NCBI RefSeq assembly: GCF_964213995.1
Contig: NC_135820.1
Span: 34,286,001-34,350,000, forward strand
Direction of reading: 5' to 3'
Length of the DNA stretch: 64,000 nt
Origin: Mustelus asterias
Taxonomy: Eukaryota
Part shown: positions 34,179-62,782 of the stretch, one piece after another
How the letters are laid out: each line of letters starts with the position of its first letter
Position numbering within the stretch: the first letter of the stretch is position 1
Position numbers and translations under genes: made by a program
Notes under the pieces: model-generated
The model's database searches: none
Seen by the model: the letters and a program-made list of their open reading frames with translations, nothing else
What the model was told of the DNA's origin: nothing

Positions 34179-37100
34179 ACAGTATGTAATGGAACCTACA
34201 AGGGAGCAAGCTATTCTAGAACTGGTCCTGTGTAATGAGATGGGAATAATTAATGATCTTGCAGTTAGGGATCTTATTGGAAGAAGCGATCACAGTATGG
34301 TTAAATTTAAAATACAGATGGATCGATAGAAGGTAAAATCCAATATCAGTGTCTTGTGCTTAAACAAAGGAGACTACAAAGGAATGAGGGAGGAGTTGGC
34401 TAAAGTAGACTGGGAGCAAAAACTTTATGGTGAGACAATTGAAGAACAGTGGAGGACTTTCAAAGTGATCTTTCACAGTGCTCAGCAAAAGTATATTCCA
34501 ATGATAAGGAAGGACTGTAGAAAAAGAGATAATCAGGATATCTAAGGAAATAAAGGAGAGTATCAAATTGAAAGAAAATGCATTCAAAGTGGCAAAGATT
34601 AGGGGAACCTAGAGGATTGGGAAATTTTTAAAGGTCAGCAGAAAGCCACGAAAAAAGCTATAAAGAAAAGTAAGATTGATTATGAGAGTAAACTAGCTCA
34701 GAATATAAAAAGAGATAGCAAAGGTTTCTACAAATATATAAAATGAAAAACAGCGGCTGAAGTAAACATTGGTCCTTTAGAGGACGAGAAGGGGGATGTA
34801 ATAACTGGAAATGAGAAAATGGCTGAAGCATTGAACAGATATTTTGTGTTGGTCTTCACAGTGGAAGACACAAATAACATGCCAAAAATTGATGACAGGA
34901 AGGCTATGGCAAATGAGAACCTAGAAATTATCATTATCACAAAAGAGATAGTGTTGGGCAAGTTAATGGGGCTAAAGGTGTTCATGGGGTTGGATGGAAA
35001 ATTTTCGGACTGGAGGCAGGTTGCTAGCGGAGTGCCACAGGGATCGGTGCTTGGTCCTCTGCTCTTTGTGATTTTTATTAATGACTTAGAGGAGGGGGCT
35101 GAAGGGTGGATCAGTAAATTTGCTGATGACACCAAGATTGGTGGAGTAGTGGATGAGGTGGAGGGCTGTTGTAGGCTGCAAAGAGACATAGATAGGATGC
35201 AAAGCTGGGCTGAAAAATGGCAAATGGAGTTTAACCCTGATAAATGTGAGGTGATTCATTTTGGTAGGACTAATTTAAATGTGGATTACAGGGTCAAAGG
35301 TAGGGTTCTGAAGACTGTGGAGGAACAGAGAGATCTTGGGGTCCATATCCACAGATCTCTAAAGGTTGCCACTCAAGTGGATAGAGCTGTGAAGAAGGCA
35401 TATAGTGTGTTAGCTTTTATTAACAGGGGGTTGGAGTTTAAGAGCCGTGGGGTTATGCTGCAACTGTACAGGACCTTGGTGAGACCGCATTTGGAATATT
35501 GCGTGCAGTTCTGGTCACCTCACTATAAGAAGGATGTGGAAGCGCTGGAAAGAGTGCAGAGGAGATTTACCAGGATGCTGCCTGGTTTGGAGTGTCGGTC
35601 TTATGAGGAAAGGTTGAGGGAGCTGGGGCTGTTCTCTTTGGAGCGGAGGAGATTGAGGGGAGACTTAATAGAGGTTTATAAAATGATGAAGGGGATAGAT
35701 CGAGTGAACGTTCAAAGACTATTTCCTCGGGTGGATGGAGCTATTACAAGGGGGCATAACTATAGGGTTCATGGTGGGAGATATCGGAAGGATATCAGAG
35801 GTAGGTTCTTCACGCAGAGAGTGGTTGGGGTGTGGAATGGACTGCCTGCAGTGATAGTGGAGTCAGACACTTTAGGAACATTTAAGCGGTTATTGGATAG
35901 GCACATGGAGCACACCAGGATGGTAGGGAGTGGGATAGCTTGATCTTGGTTTCAGATGAAGGTCGGCACAACATCATGGGCCGAAGGGCCTGTTCTGTGC
36001 TGTAATGTTCTATGTTCTATGTTCTAAGTCTCCTGGTCCTAATGGAATGCATCCCAGGATACTAAAAGAGATGGAGGGAGAAATAGCAAATGCACTAGTG
36101 GTAATTTACCAAAATTCGCTGGTCTCTGGGGTGGTTCCCGCAGATTGGAAAACAGCAAATGTGACGCCACTGTTTAAAAAAGGAGGTAGACAAAAGGCAG
36201 GTAACTATAGGCCGGTTAAATTAACTTCTGTAGTAGGGAAAATGCTTAAATCTATCATCAAGAAAGAAATAGCGAGACATCTGGATATAAATTGTCCCAT
36301 TGGTAAGACGCAGCATGGGTTCATGAAGGGAAGGTCATGTTTGACTAATTTGGTGGAATTCTTTGAGAACATTACAATGGGGACCTGTGGATGTGGGGTA
36401 TCTGGATTTCCAGAAGGCATTTGACAAGGTGCCGCATGAAAGACTGCTGCATAAGATAAAGGTGCACAGTGTTACGGGTAATGTATTAGCATGGATAGAG
36501 GATTGGTTAACTAGCAGAAAGCAAAGAGTGGGGGTAAATGGGTGTTTTTCTGGTTGGCGATCAGTGACTAGTGGTGTGCCTCAGGGATCAATATTTATGA
36601 TTTACATAGATGATTTGGATGGGGACCAAGTGTAGTTTGTCAAAATTCGCAGATGACACTATGATCAAAGTGGCGGAGCAAAGTGTGCCGAGGATGCTGA
36701 AAGTCTGCAAAGGGAGATAGATAGTCTAAGCGAGTGGGCGAGGGTCTGGCAGATGGAGTATAATGTTGGTAAATGTGAGGTCATCCATTTTGGTAGGAAT
36801 AACAGCAAAATTGACTATTATTTAAATGGTAAAAAATTGCAGCATGCTGCTGTGCAGAGGGACCTGGGTGTCCTTGTGCAGGAATCTCAAGGAGTTGGTT
36901 TGCAGGTGCAGCAGGTAATTAAGAAGGCAAATGGAACTTTGTCTTTTATTGTGAGAGGGATGGAGTTTAAAAACAGTGAGGTTATGTTGCAGCTGTATAA
37001 GGTGCTGGTAAGGCCACACCTGGAGTACTGTGTACAGTTTTGGTCTCCTTACTTGAGAAAGGATATAGTGGCACTGGAGGGGTGCAGAGGAGATTCACTA

Positions 37101-37588
37101 GGTTGATTCCGGAGTTGAGAGGGTTGGCTTATGAGGAGAGACTGAGTAGACTGGGGCTATACTCATTGGAATTCAGAAGAATGAGGGGAGATCGCATAGA
37201 AACATATAGGATTATGAAGGGAATAGATAGGATCGAAGCAGGGAAGTTGTTTCCACTGGCGGGTGAAACTAGAACTAGGGGGCGTAGCCTCAAAATAAGG
37301 GGAAGCAGATTTAGGACTGAGTTGAGGAGGAACTTCTTCACGCAAAGGGTTGTGAATCTGTGGAATTCCCTGCCCAGTGAAGCAGTTGAGGCTACCTCAT
37401 TGAATGTTTTTAAGGCAAGGATAGATACATTTTTGAACAGTAAAGGAATTAAGGGTTATGGTGAGCAGACGAGTAAGTGGGGCTGAGTCCATGAAAAGAT
37501 CAGCCATGATCCTATTGAATGGCGGAGCAGGCACGAGGGGCCAGATGGCCTACTCCTGCTCCTAGTTCTTACGATCTTATGTTCTTAT
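34179..37588 (+). mobile_element. Older 5'-truncated CR1 LINE (ORF2 broken by stops and frameshifts), interrupted by a younger CR1
   Basis: EPTREQAILELVLCN, KSPGPNGMHPRILKE, FDKVPH and RPHLEYCVQFW pieces in several frames; 3' tail tcttatgttcttat. Confidence 0.92.
34981..36026 (+). mobile_element. Young 5'-truncated CR1 LINE nested in the older CR1
   Basis: Uninterrupted RT C-terminus (SGVPQGSVLGP...FADD...WNGLP) with its own (TGTTCTA)n tail; the host motif LKV|(D)KSPG is split around it. Confidence 0.9.
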
Positions 37589-38711
37589 ATGCTCTTTTTA
37601 AGAAACGGATGAACCTGTACTTAATTATAAATGTACATGTTATGTGTGCCCTGCCCCGAAGTAGCCCCTTGGCCCGTTGTCAGCTGATGCTTCATCCTGA
37701 GCTCTTGGCAGTTTTTGTCAGTGCTGGTTACCATTGCCTTCCACACTCCGGGAAGGAGGTAGGCCCCAATTCTATCTCTGCCGGTATAGGAATCGAACCT
37801 GCACTGTAGGCATTATTATACAAATTAGGGGCAGGAGTAGGCCACTCAGCCCTTCATACCTGCTCTGAACTGTGTGCTAGCCATCTAGCAACTTGGCTAA
37901 ACTATCCCTGACCCCCTATTTATATCTGTTTCAACTTTAACTATGTAATTAACATTAACAATCCTTAACAATGGAATTGATAAGACTCTGTTGATGGTCT
38001 GTGGTCGAGGCCAGGAAATAAATTACAATTTGTGAGACCTTCCATGATGTTATGATATTCTAATGGGCAGTAACCACAGAAAATCCTAAAAAAAAATAAA
38101 CCCACTGTTTGTTTCATGTATATTTTAACTCACTTGGTGGAAAAAAAATCAAAATTCTTGTTGGTTCTTGTATTCACAATATTAAAAAAGTCAATGAAAT
38201 GATCAAAATTAGTGTTAGGAACCCATTATTGATAAAATCAGATATAGGCAGACTTTATGTAATAACTCAACTTTGTTGTAGGAATGTTTGAGCTGATCTG
38301 TGGTTCTGTGCACATTGCATTCAATCCGTCTCCAATGTTAAGACTGATTTCAGTTACTTTAATCACTCACTCCCTGAGTTACAAGTAGCTTGTCAATGAG
38401 TGGATGAATAACAGCTATGTGTAAGGTGTTAAGAATGTGGCTGAAAATTTAATAATGGCACAAAATGAATGGAGGGCACAGGGCAAAATAATGTTTAGTA
38501 AAACTAAAGTTTTGTTCTAAGCTTTTGCATTCTGGCCTTACAACTCTCTGCCTCTCTAGCTTTAGCTGTTCCTTTAAGGACACTTCTAAAAAAAAACCTG
38601 CCTCCCCTGTTCTAAGAACATAAGAACATAAGAAATAGGAGCAAGAGTAGGCCATCTAGCCCCTCGAGCCTGCCCCGCCATTCAATAAGATCATGGCTGA
38701 TCTGACGTGGA

Positions 38712-41700
38712 TCAGTACCACTTACCCGCCTGATCCCCATAACCCTTAATTCCCTTACCGATCAGGAATCCATCCATCCCCGCTTTAAACATATTCAGCG
38801 AGGTAGCCTCCACCACCTCAGTGGGCAGAGAATTCCAGAGATTCACCACCCTCTGGGAGAAGACGTTCCTCCTCAACTCTGTCTTAAACCGACCCCCCTT
38901 TATTTTGAGGCTGTGTCCTCTAGTTTTAACTTCCTTACTAAGTGGAAAGAATCTCTCCGCCTCCACCCTATCCAGCCCCCGCATTATCTTATAAGTCTCC
39001 ATAAGATCCCCCCTCATCCTTCTAAACTCCAACGAGTACAAACCCAATCTCCTCAGCCTCTCCTCATAATCCAAACCCCTCATCTCCGGTATCAACCTGG
39101 TGAACCTTCTCTGCACTCCCTCCAATGCCAATATATCCTTCCTCATATAAGGGGACCAATACTGCACACAGTATTCCAGCTGCGGCCTCACCAATGCCCT
39201 GTACAGGTGCATCAAGACATCCCTGCTTTTATATTCTATCCCCTTCGCAATATAGGCCAACATCCCATTTGCCTTCTTGATCACCTGTTGTACCTGCAGA
39301 CTGGGCTTTTGCGTCTCATGCACAAGGACCCCCAGGTCCCTTTGCACGGTAGCATGTTTTAATTTGTTTCCATTGAGATAGTAATCCCATTTGTTATTAT
39401 TTCCTCCAAAGTGTATAACCTCGCATTTCTCAACGTTATACTCCATTTGCCATATCCTCGCCCACTCACTCAGCCTGTCCAAATCTCTCTGCAGATCTTC
39501 TCCGTCCTCCACACGATTCACTTTTCCACTTATCTTTGTGTCGTCTGCAAACTTCGTTACCCTACACTCCGTCCCCTCCTCCAGATCATCTATATAAATG
39601 GTAAATAGTTGCGGCCCGAGTACCGATCCCTGCGGCACGCCACTAGTTACCTTCCTCCAACCGGAAAAACACCCATTTATTCCGACTCTTTGCTTCCTGT
39701 CGGATAGCCAGTCCCCAATCCACTTTAACACACTACCCCCAACTCCGTGTGCCCTAATCTTCTTCAGTAGCCTTTTATGGGGCACCTTATCAAACGCCTT
39801 TTGGAAATCCAAAAACACCGCATCCACCGGTTCTCCTCCATCAACCGCCCTAGTCACATCTTCATAAAAATCCAACATGTTTGTCAAGCACGACTTTCCC
39901 CTCATGAATCCATGCTGCGTCTGATTGATCGAACCATTTCTATCCAGATGCCCTGCTATCTCCTCTTTAATAATGGATTCCAGCATTTTCCCTACTACAG
40001 ACGTTAAGCTGACCGGCCTATAGTTACCCGCCTTTTGTCTCCTTCCTTTTTTAAACAGCGGCGTAACATTAGCCGTTTTCCAATCAACCGGCACTACCCC
40101 AGAATGCAACGAGTTTTGATAAATAATCACTAACGCATCCACTATTACCTCTGACATTTCTTTCAATACCCTGGGATGCATTCCATCCGGACCCGGGGAC
40201 TTATCCACCTTCAGTCCCATTAGTCTACCCAGCACTGCCTCTCTGGTAACATTAATTGTATTAAGTATTTCTCCTGCTGCCAACCCTCTATCGTTAATAT
40301 TTGGCAAACTATTTGTGTCCTCCACCGTGAAGACCGACACAAAAAACTTATTTAAAGACTCAGCCATATCCTCATTTCCCACTATTAACTCCCCCCTCTC
40401 GTCCTCCAAGGGTCCAACATTCACTCTAGCCACTCTATTCCTTTTTATATATTTATAAAAACTTTTACTATCATTTTTTATATTAATTGCTAGCCGAGCT
40501 TCATAGTCTATCCTTCCTTTCTTTATCGCTTTCTTAGTCTCTCTTTGTTGTTTCTTAAATTTTTCCCAATCACTTGTTTCTCCACTATTTTTGGCCACTC
40601 TGTACGCAGCTGTTTTTATTTTAATACTCTCCTTTATTTCCTTCGTTATCCACGGCTGGTTCTCCCTTTTCTTACAATCCTTGTTTTTTGCTGGAATATA
40701 TTTTTGCTGAGAACTGAAAAGGATCTCTTTAAAAATCCTCCACTGTTCCTCAGCTATCCTACCTGCCAGCCTGCTCTCCCAGTCTACCTTAGCCAATTCA
40801 TCCCTCATCCTATCATATTTCCCTCTGTTCAAACAGAGGACACTGGTTTGGGACCAAACTTTCTCCTCTTCCATCTGAATCAGAAATTCGACCATATTGT
40901 GGTCACTAGACCCAAGAGGGTCCTTCACAATAAGATCCTTAATTCTACCTACCTCGTTACACAATACCAGATCCAAAATAGCTCGTTCCCTCGTCGGTTC
41001 CGTAACATGCTGTTCAAGGAAACTATCCCGACAGCATTCTAAGAACTCTTCCTCCATTCCACCCTTACCGACTTGAGTCTGCCAGTCAATGTGCATGTTG
41101 AAGTCCCCCATGATTATTGCCGTTCCGTTTTTACACGCATCCCTTATCTGCTTGTTTATAGCCCTCCCTACCTCAACATTATTATTTGGGGGCCTATATA
41201 CCACACCTACTAGTGTCTTTCTCCCTCTACTATTCCTCATCTCTACCCATAATGATTCCACGTTTTGTTCCTCAGAGCCTATGTCATCCCTCAGTACTAC
41301 CCTGATATTATCTCTTATTAATAGCGCGACCCCACCAACTTTTCCTTCCTGTCTATTCTTCCTAAACGCCTGATACCCCTGGATATTCATCTCCCAGTCC
41401 TGGTCACCTTTCAGCCACGTTTCTGTAATGGCCACTAGATCGTACCCACTCGTGCTGATTTGCACCATCAACTCATTTACCTTGTTCCGAATGCTTCGTG
41501 CATTCAGGCAAAGTGTCCTTATTCCAGCTTTTATCTGGACCCGCTTTGATGAGTCGCGAACACCCTCTCCCTCTACTCCCTTATCTAAATTACCGCCTTC
41601 ATTCACTTGCACCCTCTCCTCTACCATTAATTTTGTAATTCCCCTTACCCCTGCATCCTCCACCCCATCAATTAGTTCCTTGATCCTAGTCAACTCTTCT

Positions 41701-41717
41701 AGCTCCCCTCCCCCCAA
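38712..41717 (-). CDS. CR1 LINE ORF2: APE endonuclease + reverse transcriptase
   Basis: 1001 aa with no stop; LNARSI, ITETWL, MGDFN, SDHN (endonuclease); QHGF, FDKVPH, GVPQGSVLGP, FADD (RT). Confidence 0.97.
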   Translation of the reverse strand: MGGGELEELTRIKELIDGVEDAGVRGITKLMVEERVQVNEGGNLDKGVEGEGVRDSSKRVQIKAGIRTLCLNARSIRNKVNELMVQISTSGYDLVAITETWLKGDQDWEMNIQGYQAFRKNRQEGKVGGVALLIRDNIRVVLRDDIGSEEQNVESLWVEMRNSRGRKTLVGVVYRPPNNNVEVGRAINKQIRDACKNGTAIIMGDFNMHIDWQTQVGKGGMEEEFLECCRDSFLEQHVTEPTRERAILDLVLCNEVGRIKDLIVKDPLGSSDHNMVEFLIQMEEEKVWSQTSVLCLNRGKYDRMRDELAKVDWESRLAGRIAEEQWRIFKEILFSSQQKYIPAKNKDCKKRENQPWITKEIKESIKIKTAAYRVAKNSGETSDWEKFKKQQRETKKAIKKGRIDYEARLAINIKNDSKSFYKYIKRNRVARVNVGPLEDERGELIVGNEDMAESLNKFFVSVFTVEDTNSLPNINDRGLAAGEILNTINVTREAVLGRLMGLKVDKSPGPDGMHPRVLKEMSEVIVDALVIIYQNSLHSGVVPVDWKTANVTPLFKKGRRQKAGNYRPVSLTSVVGKMLESIIKEEIAGHLDRNGSINQTQHGFMRGKSCLTNMLDFYEDVTRAVDGGEPVDAVFLDFQKAFDKVPHKRLLKKIRAHGVGGSVLKWIGDWLSDRKQRVGINGCFSGWRKVTSGVPQGSVLGPQLFTIYIDDLEEGTECRVTKFADDTKISGKVNRVEDGEDLQRDLDRLSEWARIWQMEYNVEKCEVIHFGGNNNKWDYYLNGNKLKHATVQRDLGVLVHETQKPSLQVQQVIKKANGMLAYIAKGIEYKSRDVLMHLYRALVRPQLEYCVQYWSPYMRKDILALEGVQRRFTRLIPEMRGLDYEERLRRLGLYSLEFRRMRGDLMETYKIMRGLDRVEAERFFPLSKEVKTRGHSLKIKGGRFKTELRRNVFSQRVVNLWNSLPTEVVEATSLNMFKAGMDGFLIGKGIKGYGDQAGKWY

Positions 41718-41722
41718 CCTAT

Positions 41723-42652
41723 CTAGTTTAAATTCTCCCCAGTAACCTTAGCCAACCTACCGGCCAGGATATTGGTCCCCGTGTGATTCAAGTTCCACCC
41801 GTTTTTTGTATACAGATCACCCCTGCCCCTAAAGAGGTCCCAATGGTCCAGGAACCTGAATCCCTGCCCCCTGCACCAGTCCCTCAGCCACACATTCATC
41901 TTCCACCTCACTCCATTCCTGCCCTCACCTTCCCGTGGCACAGGCAGTAATCCTGAGATTACTACCTTTGCTTTCCTCTTTCTCAGCTGTCTCCCTAATT
42001 CCCTGTACTCCCTTTTCATGACCCCTTCTCCCTTCCTACCCACATCAGCGGTACCAATATGTACCGCTACCTCAGGCTCCTCTCCCTCCCACCTCAGGAT
42101 TTCCGGGACGCGACTAGCGACATCCTGGATCCCGGCCCCAGGGAGGCAGACCACCATGCGAGAATCCCGCCTACCTCCGCAGAAACGCCTGTCTGTCCCC
42201 TTCACCATCGAGTCCCCGATTAATACCGCCTTCCTCCTCTTTTCCTTAGCCCTCTGAGTTACAGGGCTGGACTCCACTGCGGAGACACGGCCACTGCTGC
42301 TTCCCCCAGGCGGGCTGTCCCCCCCAGCAGTACTCAAGCAAGAGTACTTGTTGTGCAGGGGCAAATCCACTGGGGTGCTCTCAACCACCCTAGCCTTACC
42401 CTTCCTGGCCATCACCCACTTGGCCTCCTCCCGTTGCCCTGGTGTGACCACCTGATGATAGCTCTTGTCTATCACCTCCTCATTCTCCCTCATCAGCCTA
42501 AGATCCTCGAGCTGCAGTTCCAGCTCCCTAACACGGTCCCTCAGGAACCGCAGCTCGACACACCCCTCACAGATGTGGATGTCTGGGAGGCCAGATGCCT
42601 CCAGGACCTCCCACATCCTACACTGGGAACAACACACTGGTTTCACACTCAT
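41723..42652 (-). CDS. CR1 LINE ORF1: N-terminal Zn-finger/leucine zipper + SGNH esterase
   Basis: ATG at 42652; CxxC...CxxC, coiled coil LRDRVRELELQL, IGDS, CLPGA, HIGT and LNHTG esterase blocks. Confidence 0.93.
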   Translation of the reverse strand: MSVKPVCCSQCRMWEVLEASGLPDIHICEGCVELRFLRDRVRELELQLEDLRLMRENEEVIDKSYHQVVTPGQREEAKWVMARKGKARVVESTPVDLPLHNKYSCLSTAGGDSPPGGSSSGRVSAVESSPVTQRAKEKRRKAVLIGDSMVKGTDRRFCGGRRDSRMVVCLPGAGIQDVASRVPEILRWEGEEPEVAVHIGTADVGRKGEGVMKREYRELGRQLRKRKAKVVISGLLPVPREGEGRNGVRWKMNVWLRDWCRGQGFRFLDHWDLFRGRGDLYTKNGWNLNHTGTNILAGRLAKVTGENLN

Positions 42653-42983
42653 ACTGGACACTTTATGTCAAGTAAGACAGTGAAAAGTTAATAAGAGTGT
42701 AAGGAAACAAAAACTCACCCCTGCTCGTCCAAGCCCTGTGAGCCAAAGCCCTGACAGCTCACTCAACTTCCCACTCACTCTGCCGCCCGCTACGATGCTG
42801 CCCGCTGTATACTTTGGTGCGCTTTTAAACCCTCCAAAAACTTCCCCAGGCCTCTCCTGGCCCGACTTCCGGTTTTGAAAAAAACCTCCGATTTTAAACC
42901 CAAAATTAACTGAAAAAATAAATAATTAATTAAAGTCAGAAAACCCACTCTCTTACCCTCAGCCTGCTCCTGGGAACAAATCC

Positions 42984-43768
42984 CTGATATTAACAACTGA
43001 TATTAAACCCAAACAACTGAGATTAAACCCAAACAACTGGGATTAAACCCAAACAACTGATATTAAACCCAGAACAACTGAGACTAAACCCAGAACAACT
43101 GATATTAAACCCAAACAACTGAGATTAAACCCAAAACAACTGAGATTAAACCTAAACAACTGATATTAAACCCAAACAACTGAGATTAAACCCAGAACAA
43201 CTGATATTAAACCCAAACAACTGATATTAAACCCAAACAACTGAGATTAAATCCAAACAACTGATATTAAACCCAAACAACTGAGATTAAACCCAAACAA
43301 CTGATATTAAATCCAAACAACTGAGATTAAACCCAAACAACTGAGATTAAACCCAAACAACTGAGATTAAACCCAAACAACTGAGATTAAATCCAAACAA
43401 CTGAGATTAAATCCAAACAACTGAGATTAAACCCAAACCACTGAGATTAAATCCAAACAACTGAGATTAAACCCACAACAACTGGGTTTAAACCCAAACA
43501 ACTGAGATTCAATCCAAACAACTGAGATTAAACCCACAACAACTGAGATTAAATCCAAACAACTGAGATTCAATCCAAACAACTGAGATTAAACCCACAA
43601 CAACTGAGATTAAATCCAAACAACTGAGATTAAACCCACAACAACTGAGATTAAACCCAAACAACTGAGATTAAATCCAAACAACTGAGATTAAACCCAC
43701 AACAACTGGGATTAAACCCAAACAACTGAGATTCAATCCAAACAACTGAGATTAAACCCACAACAACT
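42984..43768. repeat. Minisatellite, ~39 copies of a 20-21 bp unit (CTGAGATTAAACCCAAACAA)
   Basis: Direct head-to-tail units with few variants (GAT/TAT, CCC/TCC, CCCACAAC). Confidence 0.97.
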
Positions 43769-43927
43769 TTCTAATAGCTCCTTATGCAGCTTGGTGCCAA
43801 ACTTTTAACGATACTCTTGTGGAGTGTCTTGGCTCATTAAAGGTGCTATGTAAATGCAGTTGTTCACCTCGAGTCCTACAATTAGTCATCTTTTATTCCT
43901 TAATTTCCCCGCAATTGTTCATTACAG

Positions 43928-52134: not shown

Positions 52135-52727
52135 TTTTGTCTCCCGTGATCAGAGGGGATTTGGTGCGGAAGTAGAATGTTTTCTATAGCAACTGGAATA
52201 ATATTATCAACACTTTATTTTCCAATGTGCATCAGAAGAGAGTGCTGAATAGCAGAGTGGAGGGCTTAAATAAAGTCATTTCATTGCATAATGGCAAAAC
52301 ATGTCTGCATTGTATAGAATTTAGCTCAAAATTTTGAGCATGAGCCACGAACATATCATGGTCAGGAACACTCAATTTCCTTTAAAATGGGGAAACCTCA
52401 AGAGTACAATGGACTAAGTTTTCTATTACATCATAACCTGAATGGGACCTTGTTACTTCACTGGCGGGAGAGGGGGGTTGGGGGGAGGAATATCGGAAAA
52501 TGAGACCTTGCCAACAAGATTCCTGTTTTCCAGCACTTGCGCCCACATTGCCATTTGTACAAAATCTACCCCCACTCCCCACCGCAGTCTGAGTAAAATT
52601 CACTGGATGGGTATTCAAAACATTCAAAATCTCCCGTGACAACGTTCGAACGCTACTATCTGAAAATCTGCCCCGACAAATTCATGCAATGAAATGGTTT
52701 AAACCTGCTTCCTTTCCCTCGGCACAG

Positions 52728-52952
52728 ACCAAACAGCTGGAATTGGGTGACAAGATGGACCTGGCATCCTACCTACTGAAGCCTATTCAGAGAATCAGCA
52801 AGTACAACTTATTGCTGAGGGATATGTTCAAAGCGTGCAGCACAGCCCAGGAGAAAGAGTGCAAGGATATCCAGGCAGCCCATCAGATTGTGTGTTTCCA
52901 GCTACGCCATGGAAATGATTTGCTTGCAATGGATGCTATACAGGAGTGTGAT
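52728..52952 (+). CDS. RhoGEF exon N TKQLELGDKMDLASYLLKPIQRISKY...HGNDLLAMDAIQECD (DH end)
   Basis: Acceptor ggcacAG, donor gtgagt; DH CR3 motif. Confidence 0.95.
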
Positions 52953-53378
52953 GTGAGTGGAGATTCACTTTAGAATGGTGAAGTTTCATACGCTGTTTTT
53001 GTTTAAATTTAGAAACCATGTTCTTATCACTTATTCTACTAAGAGGAATACTATGAACGTCTCAAAAAGATTATCACTTCCTCTGTAAATTATGACAATT
53101 CCAAATTCCTCAGTATTTCAAAATTGTGAGACATCTGATTTATCAATAATGCAAGGGTACAATATGATTATTCGCAATACTATGTCATCTGGATAGGATG
53201 ATATATTTTAGGTTGTCACTTCACATTTTTCTATTATTTGCTGGAATAGGTTGAGGGCTCTCACACATGCAAATGTCTATAACCTTGTCCATGTAACCAT
53301 CCTTCACAAGTGAGCAATGAAAGTAAGTTTCAATGGTGAGGGTGGCATAGCCAAACTCAATGTTGTCCTCCCCCAATA

Positions 53379-57291: not shown

Positions 57292-57462
57292 GTGAACCTA
57301 AAGGAGCAGGGCCAGTTGTTACGTCAAGATGAATTTGTTGTATGGTGCGGGCGAAGGAAATGGTACAGACACATCTTCCTCTTTGACGAACTCATACTCT
57401 TCAGCAAGACCAGAAAAGCAGAAGGAAGCAATGGCATCTATATTTATAAACAGTCCTTTAAG
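57292..57462 (+). CDS. RhoGEF exon O VNLKEQGQLLRQDEF...YIYKQSFK (PH domain first half)
   Basis: Acceptor ttgttcctAG, donor AAG|gtagag; RHIFLFDELILFSK PH motif. Confidence 0.95.
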
Positions 57463-58136
57463 GTAGAGTTTGTACATTTTCTAGTCTTCTCAACTATACT
57501 GTTTGATGGAAATAAGATATATTTAATAGAATATCAAATATTCTGCTTAATATTAGATGGCCCAATTGGGAATTTTTGCATCTGGGACGACATATAAACT
57601 GTGTGAGGATATTGTGAAGATAGCCTATGAATTAGCTTGAACCTTTAGGTAGCCTTTTCAATACATTAGCATGAAAGCTTTAATTAACAAGCAAAGTTAT
57701 GATGTTATAACACCACTACTTATCTCATGCTTGTATATTTGTGTTTAACCTATTTTCCTGCAAGACCTTTAGAGTTTTTAAAGACTTTAAACTATCTGGC
57801 TGGAATAAAATTATTTTGATAAAGTACTGTTAAAGGCATTAATTAAATTATGGCAAACTTATAATTAGTTAATATTGGCTAAATTCTATTGCCTTTTCTC
57901 TTGAGAAGTTGAATGTTATGTTTTATTGCAGGTACAGCAGGTTAGGTTGATTTTTGGGGGGCTGAGTTAGAACCATTGCAATTTAAGTTTAGTTTCTGTA
58001 AGCAAGGATAAGGTCAGAGTGTAAGGCGCATGCTCATTTCAACATTAGATCAATTAGTAGCTTTCTCGGTTTTTACAGATTGTTCTAGCTGCATCTGTAA
58101 CAAAATGGTGGCTGATACTACAACCTAATGGGCCTG

Positions 58137-58389
58137 TGTGGTGAACCATCGTTGGTTGCCACTGTGGGGGTTGTATAATGTTGTTGGGTTAGGGTGTTTA
58201 CCTGTGGTAGATGTTGTTATGGCACATCCCGGTCGGGCCCCGCCTCCTGGGGAGAGGTATAAGACCCTCTGCTCCGGCGGGACCCCTCCAGTCTGAACTG
58301 GTGTACTCGTGTTAGTTAGTTCCATTGTTTGCTAATAAAAGCCTTCAATAGCTGAAGCCTTGTTCCACGTGCTTGATTGTCGCGCATCA
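58137..58389 (+). repeat. 5' LTR (GC box ~58238, TATAAGA 58258-58264, AATAAA 58334-58339)
   Basis: Direct repeat of 62471-62723. Confidence 0.97.
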
Positions 58390-58431
58390 ATTTTATTAGC
58401 AAACATAAAACTCTCAACAGTAAAAGGGAGT

Positions 58432-61400
58432 ATGGAACAAATATTAAAACCAGAACGTCTGGCGCTGGACCCACGTGCGGTCGGTGCCGCTAACACCTTC
58501 GACCACTGGTGGAAGTGTTTCGAAGACTACCTGGCAGCCTCTGTAGCTGTTACTACAGACGATGACAAACTCCAGGTCCTCCACGCGAGGGTAAGCGACA
58601 CGATTTATCTTGCGATTCGTGCGGCCACCACTTACCCGAGGGCCATCGAGCTCTTGAAGAAACGATATACGAGACCACCCAACGAGATACACGCTCGTTA
58701 CCTCCTCGCTACACGACGTCGGCAGTCGGGCGAAACCATGGAGGACTACGCCAATGAGCTCTTGCAGCTTGCCAGGGGTTGCGATTGTAAAGATGTGTCA
58801 GCAGAGCAATATATGTACGACCTCGCTCGAGATGCGTTCGTAGCAGGGGTAGGGTCCTCGTACATCCGGCTTAAGTTATTAGAGAAAGGGAACCTCAACT
58901 TGACCCAAGCGATGGAGATGGCTGAGATGCTGGAAGCAGCGTCGAAAAGCTTGGCTCTGTACCCCGAAGACCACGCGGAGACAACGTGGCAAGAGCAAGC
59001 ACAAATCCCTCCTCGCCCCACGGGCTCGCGCTCCCATATCGATCCGACGACGGCGGCAGCTCCAGGCGGCCAGCGATGCTATTTTTGCGGCGGGGCCAAG
59101 CATTCACGGCAGCAGTGTCCTGCAAAAACGGCAATCTGCAGCCAGTGTGGTAAAAAGGGCCACTATGCTAAAGTTTGCAGGTCGAAGCCCAAAAACGGCA
59201 GTGCAGCCTGTGACCCTCCAGAGCGGAGACAATCTCCTTCGGCGTCGCAGTACCCACGAGGTCCGACCACATGCGAATCCAGGACGGCGCCATCGTGGCT
59301 GACGGAGGAGGAGGAAGACCACCAGGAGTCGCTACGTTTGGCGCCCTCACCCACGTGCGATTCATGGGGGCGGCCATCATGGTCAACGACGACTAGGAGC
59401 GACCAGCAGGGGTCCTCAGCATCAACCTCGGCTGCATGCAGTGACGCCCGGGGGCCAACGGTGGCGTCGATCTCTCTGGACCAGACAAAGCATCACAGGC
59501 TTGATAATTCCATGATGAACATCAAGGTAAATGGTCGTACTGTGTATTGTCTGTTTGACAGTGGGAGCACCGAGAGTTTTATTCACCCTGACACTGCAAA
59601 AAGGTGTGGACTCCGGGTTCTACCTGCCAAACAGACAATTTCCATGGCATCACGGTCCCGGTCTGTACCGATCCAAGGACGTTGTATGGTAACCCTAGAG
59701 GTACAGGGCACAATTTACGAGCAATACAGGCTCCTTGTGTTACCGCACCTTTGTGCACCAATTCTCCTCGGACTAAATTTTATGGTCCACATGAAGAGTG
59801 TGATCCTACAGTACGGTGGGCCACTCCCTTCACTGGCAGTAGGGAATCAGCCGCAGCCTCCAAATTGCCCAAAGCGCCCCGCATGCAATCTCTCCACACT
59901 AAAAATCACCACACCTTCTTTATTTAAGAATCTGGTACCAGGCTGCAAGCCCATTGCTACTAAGAGTAGGCGTTACAGCGCTGAAGACCGGATCTTTATC
60001 AGATCTGAGGTTCAGCGGCTCCTCAAGGAAGGGATCATACAGGCCAGTGCTAGTCCGTGGAGAGCGCAGGTCGTGGTGGTTAAAAGCGGGAACAAACCTC
60101 GGATGGTCATCGACTACAGTCAGACCATTAACCGTTATACGCAGCTGGATGCGTATCCTCTCCCGCGCATTTCTGATATGGTCAATCAGATTGCGCAGTA
60201 CCGGGTGTTCTCTACCATAGACCTTAAGTCCGCCTACCATCAACTCCCCATCCGCCCAGAGGACCGACAATACACGGCTTTTGAGGCGGATGGTCGTCTA
60301 TACCATTTTCTCAGGGTTCCATTTGGTGTCACCAATGGGGTCTCGGTCTTCCAGCGTGCTATGGACCGAATGGTGGACCAGAACGGGTTGCGGGCTACCT
60401 TCCCGTACCTGGATAACGTCACCATCTGCGGCCATGACCAGCAGGACCATGACACGAATCTCCAACACTTTCTGCGCACTGCATCTCGCCTGAATCTGAC
60501 CTATAACAGGGAGAAGTGCGTATTCCGTACGCGCAGGTTAGCTATCCTTGGATACGTGGTGGAAAACGGGGTCATTGGCCCTGATCCAGATCGTATGCGC
60601 CCCCTTACTGAACTTCCCTTGCCCGCTAGCACAAAAGCACTGAGGAGATGCCTCGGCTTCTTTTCGTATTATGCGCAGTGGGTCCCCAACTACGCGGACA
60701 AAGCTCGTCCGCTCATCAAGTCCACGACCCTCCCACTCACGCCGGAGGCCCAATTGGCCTTCAAGGCTTTGAAAAGCGACATTGCGAAAGCCACGATGCA
60801 CGCGGTGGATGAATCCATCCCTTTCCAGGTGGAAAGTGATGCATCTGATTTCGCCCTAGCCGCCACACTAAACCAGGCAGGCAGGCCCGTTGCGTTCTTT
60901 TCCCGCACCCTTCAAGGCCCCGAAATTCGGCACTCAGCGGTGGAGAAGGAGGCTCAGGCCATTGTGGAGGCCATCAGACACTGGCGCCATTACCTGGCGG
61001 GGAAGCGGTTCACCCTGATCACGGATCAACGATCCGTGGCGTTTATGTTCAGTAACACGCAGAGGGGCAAGATCAAGAACGATAAGATCTTGCGGTGGAG
61101 AATTGAGCTCTCCACCTATAATTACGATATTATGTATCGTCCAGGGAAGCTCAATGAGCCCTCGGATGCCCTCTTGCGCGGAACATGCGCCATCATGCAG
61201 GAGGACCGCTTGAAGGCCCTCCACAATGACCTGTGTCATCCTGGAGTCACCCGACTCTACCACTTCGTAAAAGCCCGCAACCTGCCCTACTCGGTGGAGG
61301 ATGTCAGGTCAGTGACGAGAAGCTGTCGGATTTGCGCGGAATGCAAACCGCACTTTTATCGACCGGACCGGGCACAATTGGTCAAGGCCACTCGCCCCTT

Positions 61401-61452
61401 CGAGAGGCTGAGTGTGGATTTTAAGGGCCCCCTTCCCTCAACGGACCGGAAT
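58432..61452 (+). CDS. Gypsy gag-pol polyprotein (Gag with two CCHC knuckles, protease LFDSGS, RT, RNase H, integrase Zn finger)
   Basis: Single frame from ATG 58432; CYFCGGAKHSRQQC, CSQCGKKGHYAKVC, PFG, YLDN, SDASD, HPG...CRIC motifs; frame breaks at ~61452. Confidence 0.93.
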
Positions 61453-62407
61453 TGTCTATTTTCTCAATATAATAGACAAGTACTCCCGGTTCCCGTTTGT
61501 TGTCCCCTGTGCGGACATGTCGACTGCCACAGTGATTAAGGCATTCAGTGATCTTTTTACCCTGTTCGGGTACCCCTGCTACATACATAGCGACAGGGGC
61601 TCGTCGTTCATGAGTAACGACTTGAGGCAATTCCTGCTCTCATACGGGATTGCCTCTAGTAGAACCACGAGCTACAACCCTCGGGGTAACGGACAGGTGG
61701 AGAGGGAGAATGCTACAGTCTGGAAGGCTGTCCTACTGGCGCTGAAATCCAGGGGCCTTCCAGTCTCCCGTTGGCAGGAGGTCCTTCCAAATGCGCTTCA
61801 TTCCATCCGCTCCCTCCTGTGTACGGCAACCAATGCTACTCCCCACGAGAGGATGTTCTCATTCCCTCGGAAGTCGTCCTCGGGGATCTCCTTACCAGCC
61901 TGGTTGACGTACCCAGGACCCGTCCTTCTGCGGCGACATGTGAGGGCCCGCAAGTCCGACCCCTTGGTCGAACCGGTCCAACTCCTCCACGCCAACCCTC
62001 AGTATGCCTATGTAGCATATCCTGACGGGCGAGAGGACACAGTCTCGATTCGAGACCTGGCGCCCGCAGGGGACGTAGCAACTCCTGTCGCTCCCATACC
62101 CCCTGTCACGAATCCCCTATCACTTATTTCTTCCCCAGACGTGGCGCGGTCAGCACCGGGACCAGTGCATAACAGTTATACTCCCATGTACAGCTTGCCT
62201 GAGACTTGGAGATCGGCGCCACCACAGAAGGTTCCAGGATCCCCTGCACCATCGCCTCACCAGGGTCAACCGGCCCGGGAGTCCTCGAGGGGACAGCCGG
62301 ACGCTGTTTTGGAGAGAACGCCACCGCAAGCACCTGCTCCGGTGTCGCAACCGGTGTTGAGGAGATCACAGCGACGGTGCGGTCCTCCAGACCGTCTGGA
62401 CTTGTGA
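61453..62407 (+). CDS. Gypsy integrase core and C-terminus (after a +1 frameshift)
   Basis: YSRFPF, IHSDRGSSF, YNPRGNGQVERENA DDE motifs and terminal LRRSQR...PPDRL; frame is +1 relative to upstream pol. Confidence 0.9.
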
Positions 62408-62470
62408 ATTTTGTACATATGTGACCTGTTTTCGCACCCCGCTGGCCTTTGTTTTTAAAGGAGGGGTGAA

Positions 62471-62723
62471 TGTGGTGAACCATCGTTGGTTGCCACTGTG
62501 GGGGTTGTATAATGTTGTTGGGTTAGGGTGTTTACCTGTGGTAGATGTTGTTATGGCACATCCCGGTCGGGCCCCGCCTCCTGGGGAGAGGTATAAGACC
62601 CTCTGCTCCGGCGGGACCCCTCCAGTCTGAACTGGTGTACTCGTGTTAGTTAGTTCCATTGTTTGCTAATAAAAGCCTTCAATAGCTGAAGCCTTGTTCC
62701 ACGTGCTTGATTGTCACGCATCA
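62471..62723 (+). repeat. 3' LTR (AATAAA 62668-62673)
   Basis: Identical to the 5' LTR except A62716 vs G58382. Confidence 0.97.
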
Positions 62724-62782
62724 GCCTGCACTGCACAAAACAACATATATTAGCAGACCTACCACACACTTCTCATATATTG

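Follow-up and report, generated by a model that had tools for sequence, protein, structure and literature searches.

Reverse transcription of the fission-yeast element Tf1 is initiated by self-priming (PMC4600332, PMC5341516, 10.1101/2022.12.06.519325). In the parts of the literature examined, Tf1 is the one element for which self-priming is proven, and the trait is taken to characterise the Tf1/sushi chromoviruses; Tf1, Tf2, Tj1, Tosmo and the Tf1/sushi group as a whole are classed as chromoviruses (PMC4600332, PMC5341516, 10.1101/2022.12.06.519325, PMC11042837). In plants, the Tcn1 (gypsy) and TAR (copia) lineages are predicted to self-prime, by the rule that a complement of at least 10 nt starts 0-5 nt after the LTR, and the copia lineage Bianca is primed by a half tRNA (sections of PMC6317226). 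The Cigr-1 clade and the Mag branch of Gypsy are named in PMC6238403, in the available portion of which priming is not mentioned.

We analysed 64,000 nt of Mustelus asterias DNA (NC_135820.1, positions 34,286,001 to 34,350,000; in the following called the window), which contain a Gypsy element at 58137-62723. With the Tf1/sushi group, as portrayed in the portions of those papers at hand, it shares the Ty3/Gypsy affiliation, the lack of a tRNA primer binding site (PBS) and post-LTR bases complementary to R, and here as there a cut would be needed to free a 3′ OH. LTRs, a 5-bp target site duplication (TSD), a polypurine tract and the domain order PR-RT-RH-IN place it in Ty3/Gypsy; it is single-ORF and chromodomain-free. 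The element is young, and its two LTRs (58137-58389 and 62471-62723) differ at 1 of 253 positions. The LTR end was set at the CA at 58389 because the TSD GCCTG is found on both flanks. In this copy the gag-pol frame is broken within the integrase. The features, all on the plus strand, are the following.

58132-58136, +: left TSD GCCTG, flanking the 5′ LTR
58137-58389, +: 5′ LTR, 253 bp, TG...CA, from LTR comparison
58258-58263, +: predicted TATA box TATAAG, from the sequence and the TATA-initiator spacing across loci
58288-58294, +: initiator CCAGTCT with predicted start at A 58290; motif kept across families and matched by three sister-family fold-backs
58319-58325, +: 5′ strand of a predicted second helix pairing with the gag start codon, from the predicted fold
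58326-58340, +: putative self-primer segment in R, complementary to the PBS, from complementarity and covariation; likely cut at 58340/58341
58334-58339, +: AATAAA poly(A) hexamer within the stem
58341-58390, +: loop of 49 nt, made up of distal R and U5, and the 1-nt spacer; together the predicted template for minus-strand strong-stop DNA of 50 nt
58391-58405, +: PBS without tRNA signature, from complementarity and the TGG and tRNA comparisons
58432-61539, +: gag-pol frame with Gag (two CCHC knuckles), protease, RT (YLDN), RNase H and integrase zinc finger
61412-62407, +: integrase core and C-terminus in another frame, without chromodomain
62457-62470, +: polypurine tract, the same motif as in relatives
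62471-62723, +: 3′ LTR, with its copy of the pairing segment at 62660-62674
62724-62728, +: right TSD GCCTG, flanking the 3′ LTR

The RT catalytic motif of this young family, at 60408-60419, reads YLDN and not YxDD, and YxDN is present in 40 of the 70 rows of our RT-RNase H tree. Loss of the second aspartate cripples other RTs, so that an active lineage with YxDN is odd. The element apparently lies in sense orientation in an intron, after two host frames (52593-52973 and 57292-57597) that resemble DH and PH domain exons of a Rho GEF, presumably a PLEKHG4-like one. Elsewhere in the window, two CR1-type LINE copies lie in opposite orientation at 34179-41013, with arms ~78% complementary. In the minus-strand LINE, a frame at 38712-41747 is open for 1011 aa, and an esterase-like frame (41723-42667) lies upstream of it; directly upstream of this LINE is a tandem array with a period of 20-21 nt (42971-43821).

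A sequence-only reading of the locus had claimed that an exact complement of the element's own poly(A)-signal region takes the place of the tRNA PBS. This was borne out: no TGG is found at the PBS position, a single A (58390) separates the LTR from the PBS, and 58391-58405 is the exact 15-nt reverse complement of 58326-58340 (TGTTTGCTAATAAAA), with no extension of the pairing on either side. Of 20,000 dinucleotide-shuffled LTRs, none contained a complement of more than 13 nt to the 21-nt stretch that follows the LTR. The hairpin is also confined to the 5′ LTR, as had been stated, the PBS following this LTR alone. In the predicted fold, host DNA beyond the 3′ LTR (62745-62755) pairs partially with the 3′ copy of the primer segment, probably by chance. 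The element conforms to the self-priming rule used for Tcn1 and TAR, which belong to other lineages and hosts and for which the consulted sections of PMC6317226 mention no link to a poly(A) signal.

The window's own family yielded 2,115 first-look candidates; the 40 that were scored are 99-100% identical, and the exact 15-mer is present in 29 of 30 fetched loci of this family. Protein relatives bear names from rays, Trichinella and an isopod. The genome was further searched with three diverged Gag stretches, which led to families at 51-68% Gag identity. Full-length relatives, with LTR ends and 5-bp TSDs confirmed, have the polypurine motif in common. An LTR end is present in 145 of 146 distinct loci, 53 of which belong to the window's own cluster and are therefore not independent. 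The best stem starts 1 nt past the LTR in 141 of the 145 loci; its end reads AATAAAA in 124 and ATTAAAA in 11. At one locus (L172) the 3′ LTR breaks off within the pairing segment, directly before ATAAAA. Genome-wide, the LTR-PBS junction motif occurs 12,647 times, against 312 for a reversed control. A viral scan found no relatives, and a metagenome scan with one RT query gave only 7 distant elements at 27-32% identity.

Covariation was analysed in 151 loci from 19 LTR clusters, comprising the 145 loci without L141 (stem out of register), five ordinary elements and two loci from outside this genome (L128 and L129); L075, which has no LTR end, had likewise been left out. Over these loci, Watson-Crick pairing amounts to 91-99% at positions 0 to -13 and to 12% at -15, and two to four pair types occur among the 19 clusters at positions -5, -7 to -10, -12 and -13. 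When each cluster was represented by a randomly drawn copy, a mean of 148.5 of 152 cells at the variable positions (-5 to -12) were Watson-Crick pairs. Permuting the PBS among clusters gave 96.9 ± 5.2 of 152, and 0 of 20,000 permutations reached the observed score, a result that is not a strict probability as the clusters are related. In all 19 clusters the two strands vary in concert, the A(A/T)TAAA hexamer region forms the end of the stem and the loop length stays at 48-54 nt. The complementarity between the post-LTR PBS and R is a real, conserved feature; the compensatory change by which the sequence-only reading had proposed to judge its claim is present across the 19 clusters, and the complementarity is kept in relatives.

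The two outside loci came from a scan of prokaryote genomes that gave five loci, three of them without a usable junction. Their RT-RNase H sequences are 69% and 64% identical, and stem and spacer are kept with other letters, around loops of 49 and 50 nt. Both are whole animal-type retrotransposons on circular single-LTR contigs in bacterial metagenome bins, and represent contamination of those bins. The LTR of L128 is only ~120 bp long and has no evident TATA box.

A TGG follows the LTR in 0 of the 145 loci, which sets the lineage apart from tRNA-primed elements; of 5 Mag-like elements retrieved from the genome, 4 do have one. Host tRNA-Ile genes have 9 nt (TGCTAATAA) in common with the window element's pairing segment. 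Together with the Bianca precedent, as given in the available part of PMC6317226, this match could suggest Bianca-like priming by a half tRNA-Ile(AAU) produced by cleavage in the anticodon loop, with the LTR match as a secondary feature. However, 9 nt are reached in 4 of 15 family representatives and 3-7 nt in the others, and the element's own LTR pairs better in all 15; the family variants already contradict this explanation, and we regard it as extremely improbable. A tRNA complement kept across the lineage, as in Bianca-type elements, was not found with tRNA-Ile, the one tRNA compared. A host-RNA primer in general is disfavoured because the PBS tracks the element's own LTR from family to family. 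Self-priming without a tRNA, which the sequence-only reading had proposed, is well supported by the compensatory change, the fixed register at the LTR end and the fold-back insertions described below, and we consider it very likely.

The position of the pairing strand within the transcript was predicted from promoter motifs. A TATA box lies 30-35 nt ahead of a YYAGT initiator in 134 of the 145 loci, the distance from the predicted start to the stem end is 50-55 nt in 130 and 74-75 nt in three, and the loop measures 48-53 nt in 144. The window transcript is predicted to start at A 58290, which would place the pairing strand 36 nt inside the RNA, close to the ~40 nt estimated earlier; the conserved TATA-initiator pair and three fold-backs that end at the matching initiator base agree with this internal location. 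According to the predicted fold, the gag start codon pairs with the bases that directly precede the stem. Such an AUG helix with at least 6 pairs is possible in 12 of the 19 cluster representatives (five were left unscored, and the count has no shuffle control), shows a compensating change between families and has only 4 bp in L128 and L129. At another locus, L232, the leader is replaced by a 24-nt inverted R, joined to the gag AUG via AUG-helix homology. The fold of the whole leader is unexceptional (z -1.85), and the three-duplex pretzel of Tf1 is absent from the predicted fold of the window copy, the one sequence folded.

Several of these properties separate the element from the Tf1/sushi group, as far as the accessible parts of the Tf1 literature describe it. 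The PBS is complementary to the element's own LTR as in that group; however, the Tf1/sushi primer is the very 5′ end of the RNA, coincident with the transcription start, whereas the primer of the window element would lie ~35 nt inside, judging from the predicted start. Its stem ends in the poly(A) hexamer, unlike that of Tf1/sushi. The Tf1 pretzel makes use of the LTR downstream of the primer, whereas the second helix predicted here would use upstream sequence and cover the AUG. Finally, Tf1/sushi elements carry a chromodomain at the integrase C-terminus, but none is present in 32 of 32 proteins of the window lineage: Pfam Chromo gave no match at E 0.05 in these proteins, nor at E 0.001 in the window integrase frame. 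The element is thus predicted to work like Tf1 and yet to fall outside Tf1/sushi by its internal primer, the lack of a pretzel and the lack of a chromodomain.

In a quick RT-RNase H tree built without named Tf1/sushi references, the 59 relatives form one long branch (SH-aLRT 100), apart from Mag-like and fungal-type rows. A sushi-like control was sought in this genome: profile PF16297 gave 0 matches, the control itself being silent, and PF00385 gave 17 matches, among which no Tf1/sushi element was identified. The one PF00385 match whose frames were read, L279, was rejected as a sushi-like element, being a CHD-like host exon. Cigr-1 is a short, single-ORF animal element with a Mag-like two-knuckle Gag and an LTR of ~250 bp. 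Going by this description, the window element resembles Cigr-1 and the Mag branch in its short single ORF, two-knuckle Gag and LTR length; the Mag-like elements of this genome, however, form a separate branch and have a TGG PBS, unlike the window lineage.

In HIV-1, which uses a tRNA primer, the 5′ poly(A) hexamer is held in a hairpin stem that lies within R and occurs at both RNA ends. The window stem likewise holds the 5′ hexamer, but its partner strand is the PBS, which makes it specific for the 5′ end. The chances appear about even that this stem hides the 5′ hexamer from the cleavage machinery; masking is a reasonable second role since families differ at the hexamer only between the two canonical forms and since the stem is confined to the 5′ end. 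A search for poly(A)-tailed retrocopies found 0. One might go further and suppose that the hairpin is purely regulatory, hiding the 5′ poly(A) signal and the AUG, and that something else, such as a protein, a poly(A) tail or some host RNA, is the primer. The confinement of hexamer variants to AATAAA and ATTAAA and the second helix on the AUG would agree with this. Masking does not require, however, a start 1 nt past the CA end used by integrase, the register seen in nearly all loci, and no other PBS is found at that place; changes that differ from family to family at eight positions could not be matched by a host RNA, and the fold-back junctions link the hexamer end to the antisense LTR end. 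We consider a solely regulatory role improbable.

With moderate confidence, we propose instead that the 15 post-LTR bases pair with the hexamer-ended LTR segment and that this segment primes after a cut behind AATAAAA in the 5′ copy. Transcription would start at the predicted site, 58290; 58326-58340 would pair with the PBS over the 50-nt loop, and 58319-58325 with the gag AUG. The RNase H of the RT would, by analogy with Tf1, cut at 58340/58341 and leave a capped primer of ~51 nt with its last 13-16 nt on the PBS. RT would then copy the 50-nt strong-stop DNA and jump to the 3′ end via the sequence from the hexamer to the poly(A) site. In a last step the plus strand would copy the primer and thereby rewrite the PBS from the LTR, which would keep the two in step. 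For this, plus-strand synthesis would need to stop after ~15 nt of the 51-nt primer, and the model specifies no stop signal.

A genome search with a pattern of LTR end plus inverted R gave 65 matches, against 1 for the reverse-pattern control. Fifty-five are fold-backs in which the LTR end is followed by 1 nt and the inverted R, set against ~12,600 LTR-PBS junctions in the genome; the other ten were discarded (3 non-element, 6 ordinary elements, and L237, whose naturally longer stem makes it ambiguous). The window's own family contributed no clear fold-back, its 2 matches being one deletion and one ambiguous case. Every fold-back links the antisense LTR end to the end of the hexamer, the primer-product junction expected from self-priming. 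Sixteen of them form complete palindromes whose two U3 ends are each bordered by the 5-bp TSD (exact in 15, one mismatch in the other); two of the 16 may be copies of a single event. Because the TSD lies outside both U3 ends, these palindromes formed before integration and were inserted by integrase. Palindromes alone cannot name the primer, since complementary PBS and R would let DNA intermediates fold back anyway.

Mini-elements 400-600 bp long, palindromic and flanked by a 5-bp TSD, with U3 at both ends (L202, L204, L210, L211, L215, L217, L218, L233, L235, L239, L242, L247, L251 and L256) imply the integration of DNA with two left ends; their arms show more divergence in U3 than in R. Extra arm divergence in the first 15 nt of the palindromes was not seen in 19 loci (1.1%, versus 1.6% and 3.0% further out).

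The ends of the arms bear on the origin of the primer. Six inverted arms end within R or at its edge, three of them at the predicted start site (L199, L201, L231); these three stops all belong to one sister family and share 4-7 nt of microhomology with the acceptor. Of 6 switches to element-internal sequence, 5 lie within R. In seven insertions with a single LTR, AATAAAA is immediately followed by an antisense copy of the LTR end, 6-31 nt long; the LTR then resumes at the next base in six and at +6 in one. Among 19 shortened forward arms, 8 begin at -11 to +1. The binomial figures attached to these counts used position windows that were set with the data in view. A capped 5′ fragment and a template cut behind the hexamer, as in Tf1, would account for the start-site stops, the +1 inserts and the -11 to +1 cluster; on a cut by RNase H the inserts bear indirectly.

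Other arms count against the 5′ copy. About 40 of the 55 inverted arms reach the U3 start, and three continue into the polypurine tract and integrase (L212, L238, L255). Palindrome arms differ at subfamily-type positions in L251, L212 and L202/L203, so that two molecules were involved. The forward arms of L255 and L258 start near the predicted cap, as expected of an uncut template, and in the L180 haplotype the primer and U5 markers are those of one subfamily, the remainder being that of a second. All this would be accommodated if the 3′ copy primed, its RNA end being cut or trimmed to AATAAAA (62674) and pairing with the PBS of the same or a second packaged RNA; strong-stop DNA would then run ~100 nt to the cap and jump by the 35-nt leader, which would thereby have a role. 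However, the hairpin at the 5′ end, being local, should be the first to form, no PBS accompanies the 3′ LTR, and the stops, inserts and -11 to +1 cluster fit the cut 5′ copy. U3-ended arms are also expected with plus-strand strong-stop DNA as template, the supporting arms and L180 also fit transfer of a copied primer onto another plus-sense molecule, and plus-strand copying of a primer from the 3′ end would have no natural stop. We judge priming from the 3′ copy unlikely, though it deserves serious consideration. On the suggestion, already made from the sequence, that the pairing strand could come from the 3′ R, the evidence leans to the 5′ copy, and the cut 5′ copy is the favoured candidate primer.

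Marker linkage was followed in two families. In family B, an indel at the R start tracks a U3 marker with r2 0.90, versus 0.41-0.44 for U5 markers (43 copies), a weak result that speaks for the 5′ copy; family A is uninformative, its R having no marker. L183, considered as a read-through, was left uncounted, as microhomology with inverted pol explains it equally well.

The literature searched, outside subscription papers, Repbase Reports and GyDB, yielded no account of an animal Gypsy element that self-primes and is not a chromovirus, and it is possible that the priming of this lineage has been noticed before. The present analysis contributes a 50 + 50 nt geometry, footprints of the start and cut sites, the AUG helix and palindromes flanked by TSDs. 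Tentatively, these features could describe a widespread animal Gypsy lineage that self-primes apart from Tf1/sushi, in which one RNA switch would do three jobs: a stem hiding the poly(A) signal, a helix hiding the AUG, and a single cut behind AAUAAAA that frees a capped 51-nt primer and severs the hexamer from the downstream element. Fold-back errors of this process would give rise to the two-U3 palindromes inserted by integrase.

If true, this would be a second solution to self-priming, in a chromodomain-free animal lineage with more than 12,000 junctions in one genome and with the primer inside R in a fixed 50 + 50 nt geometry. Silencing by tRNA fragments would not be able to reach such a lineage, and its elements will be missed by annotation tools that require a tRNA PBS. 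From the fold-back insertions, both the intermediates of reverse transcription and the start site can be read in the genome, and the initiation of reverse transcription would be tied to the old problem of how LTR elements ignore their 5′ poly(A) signal.
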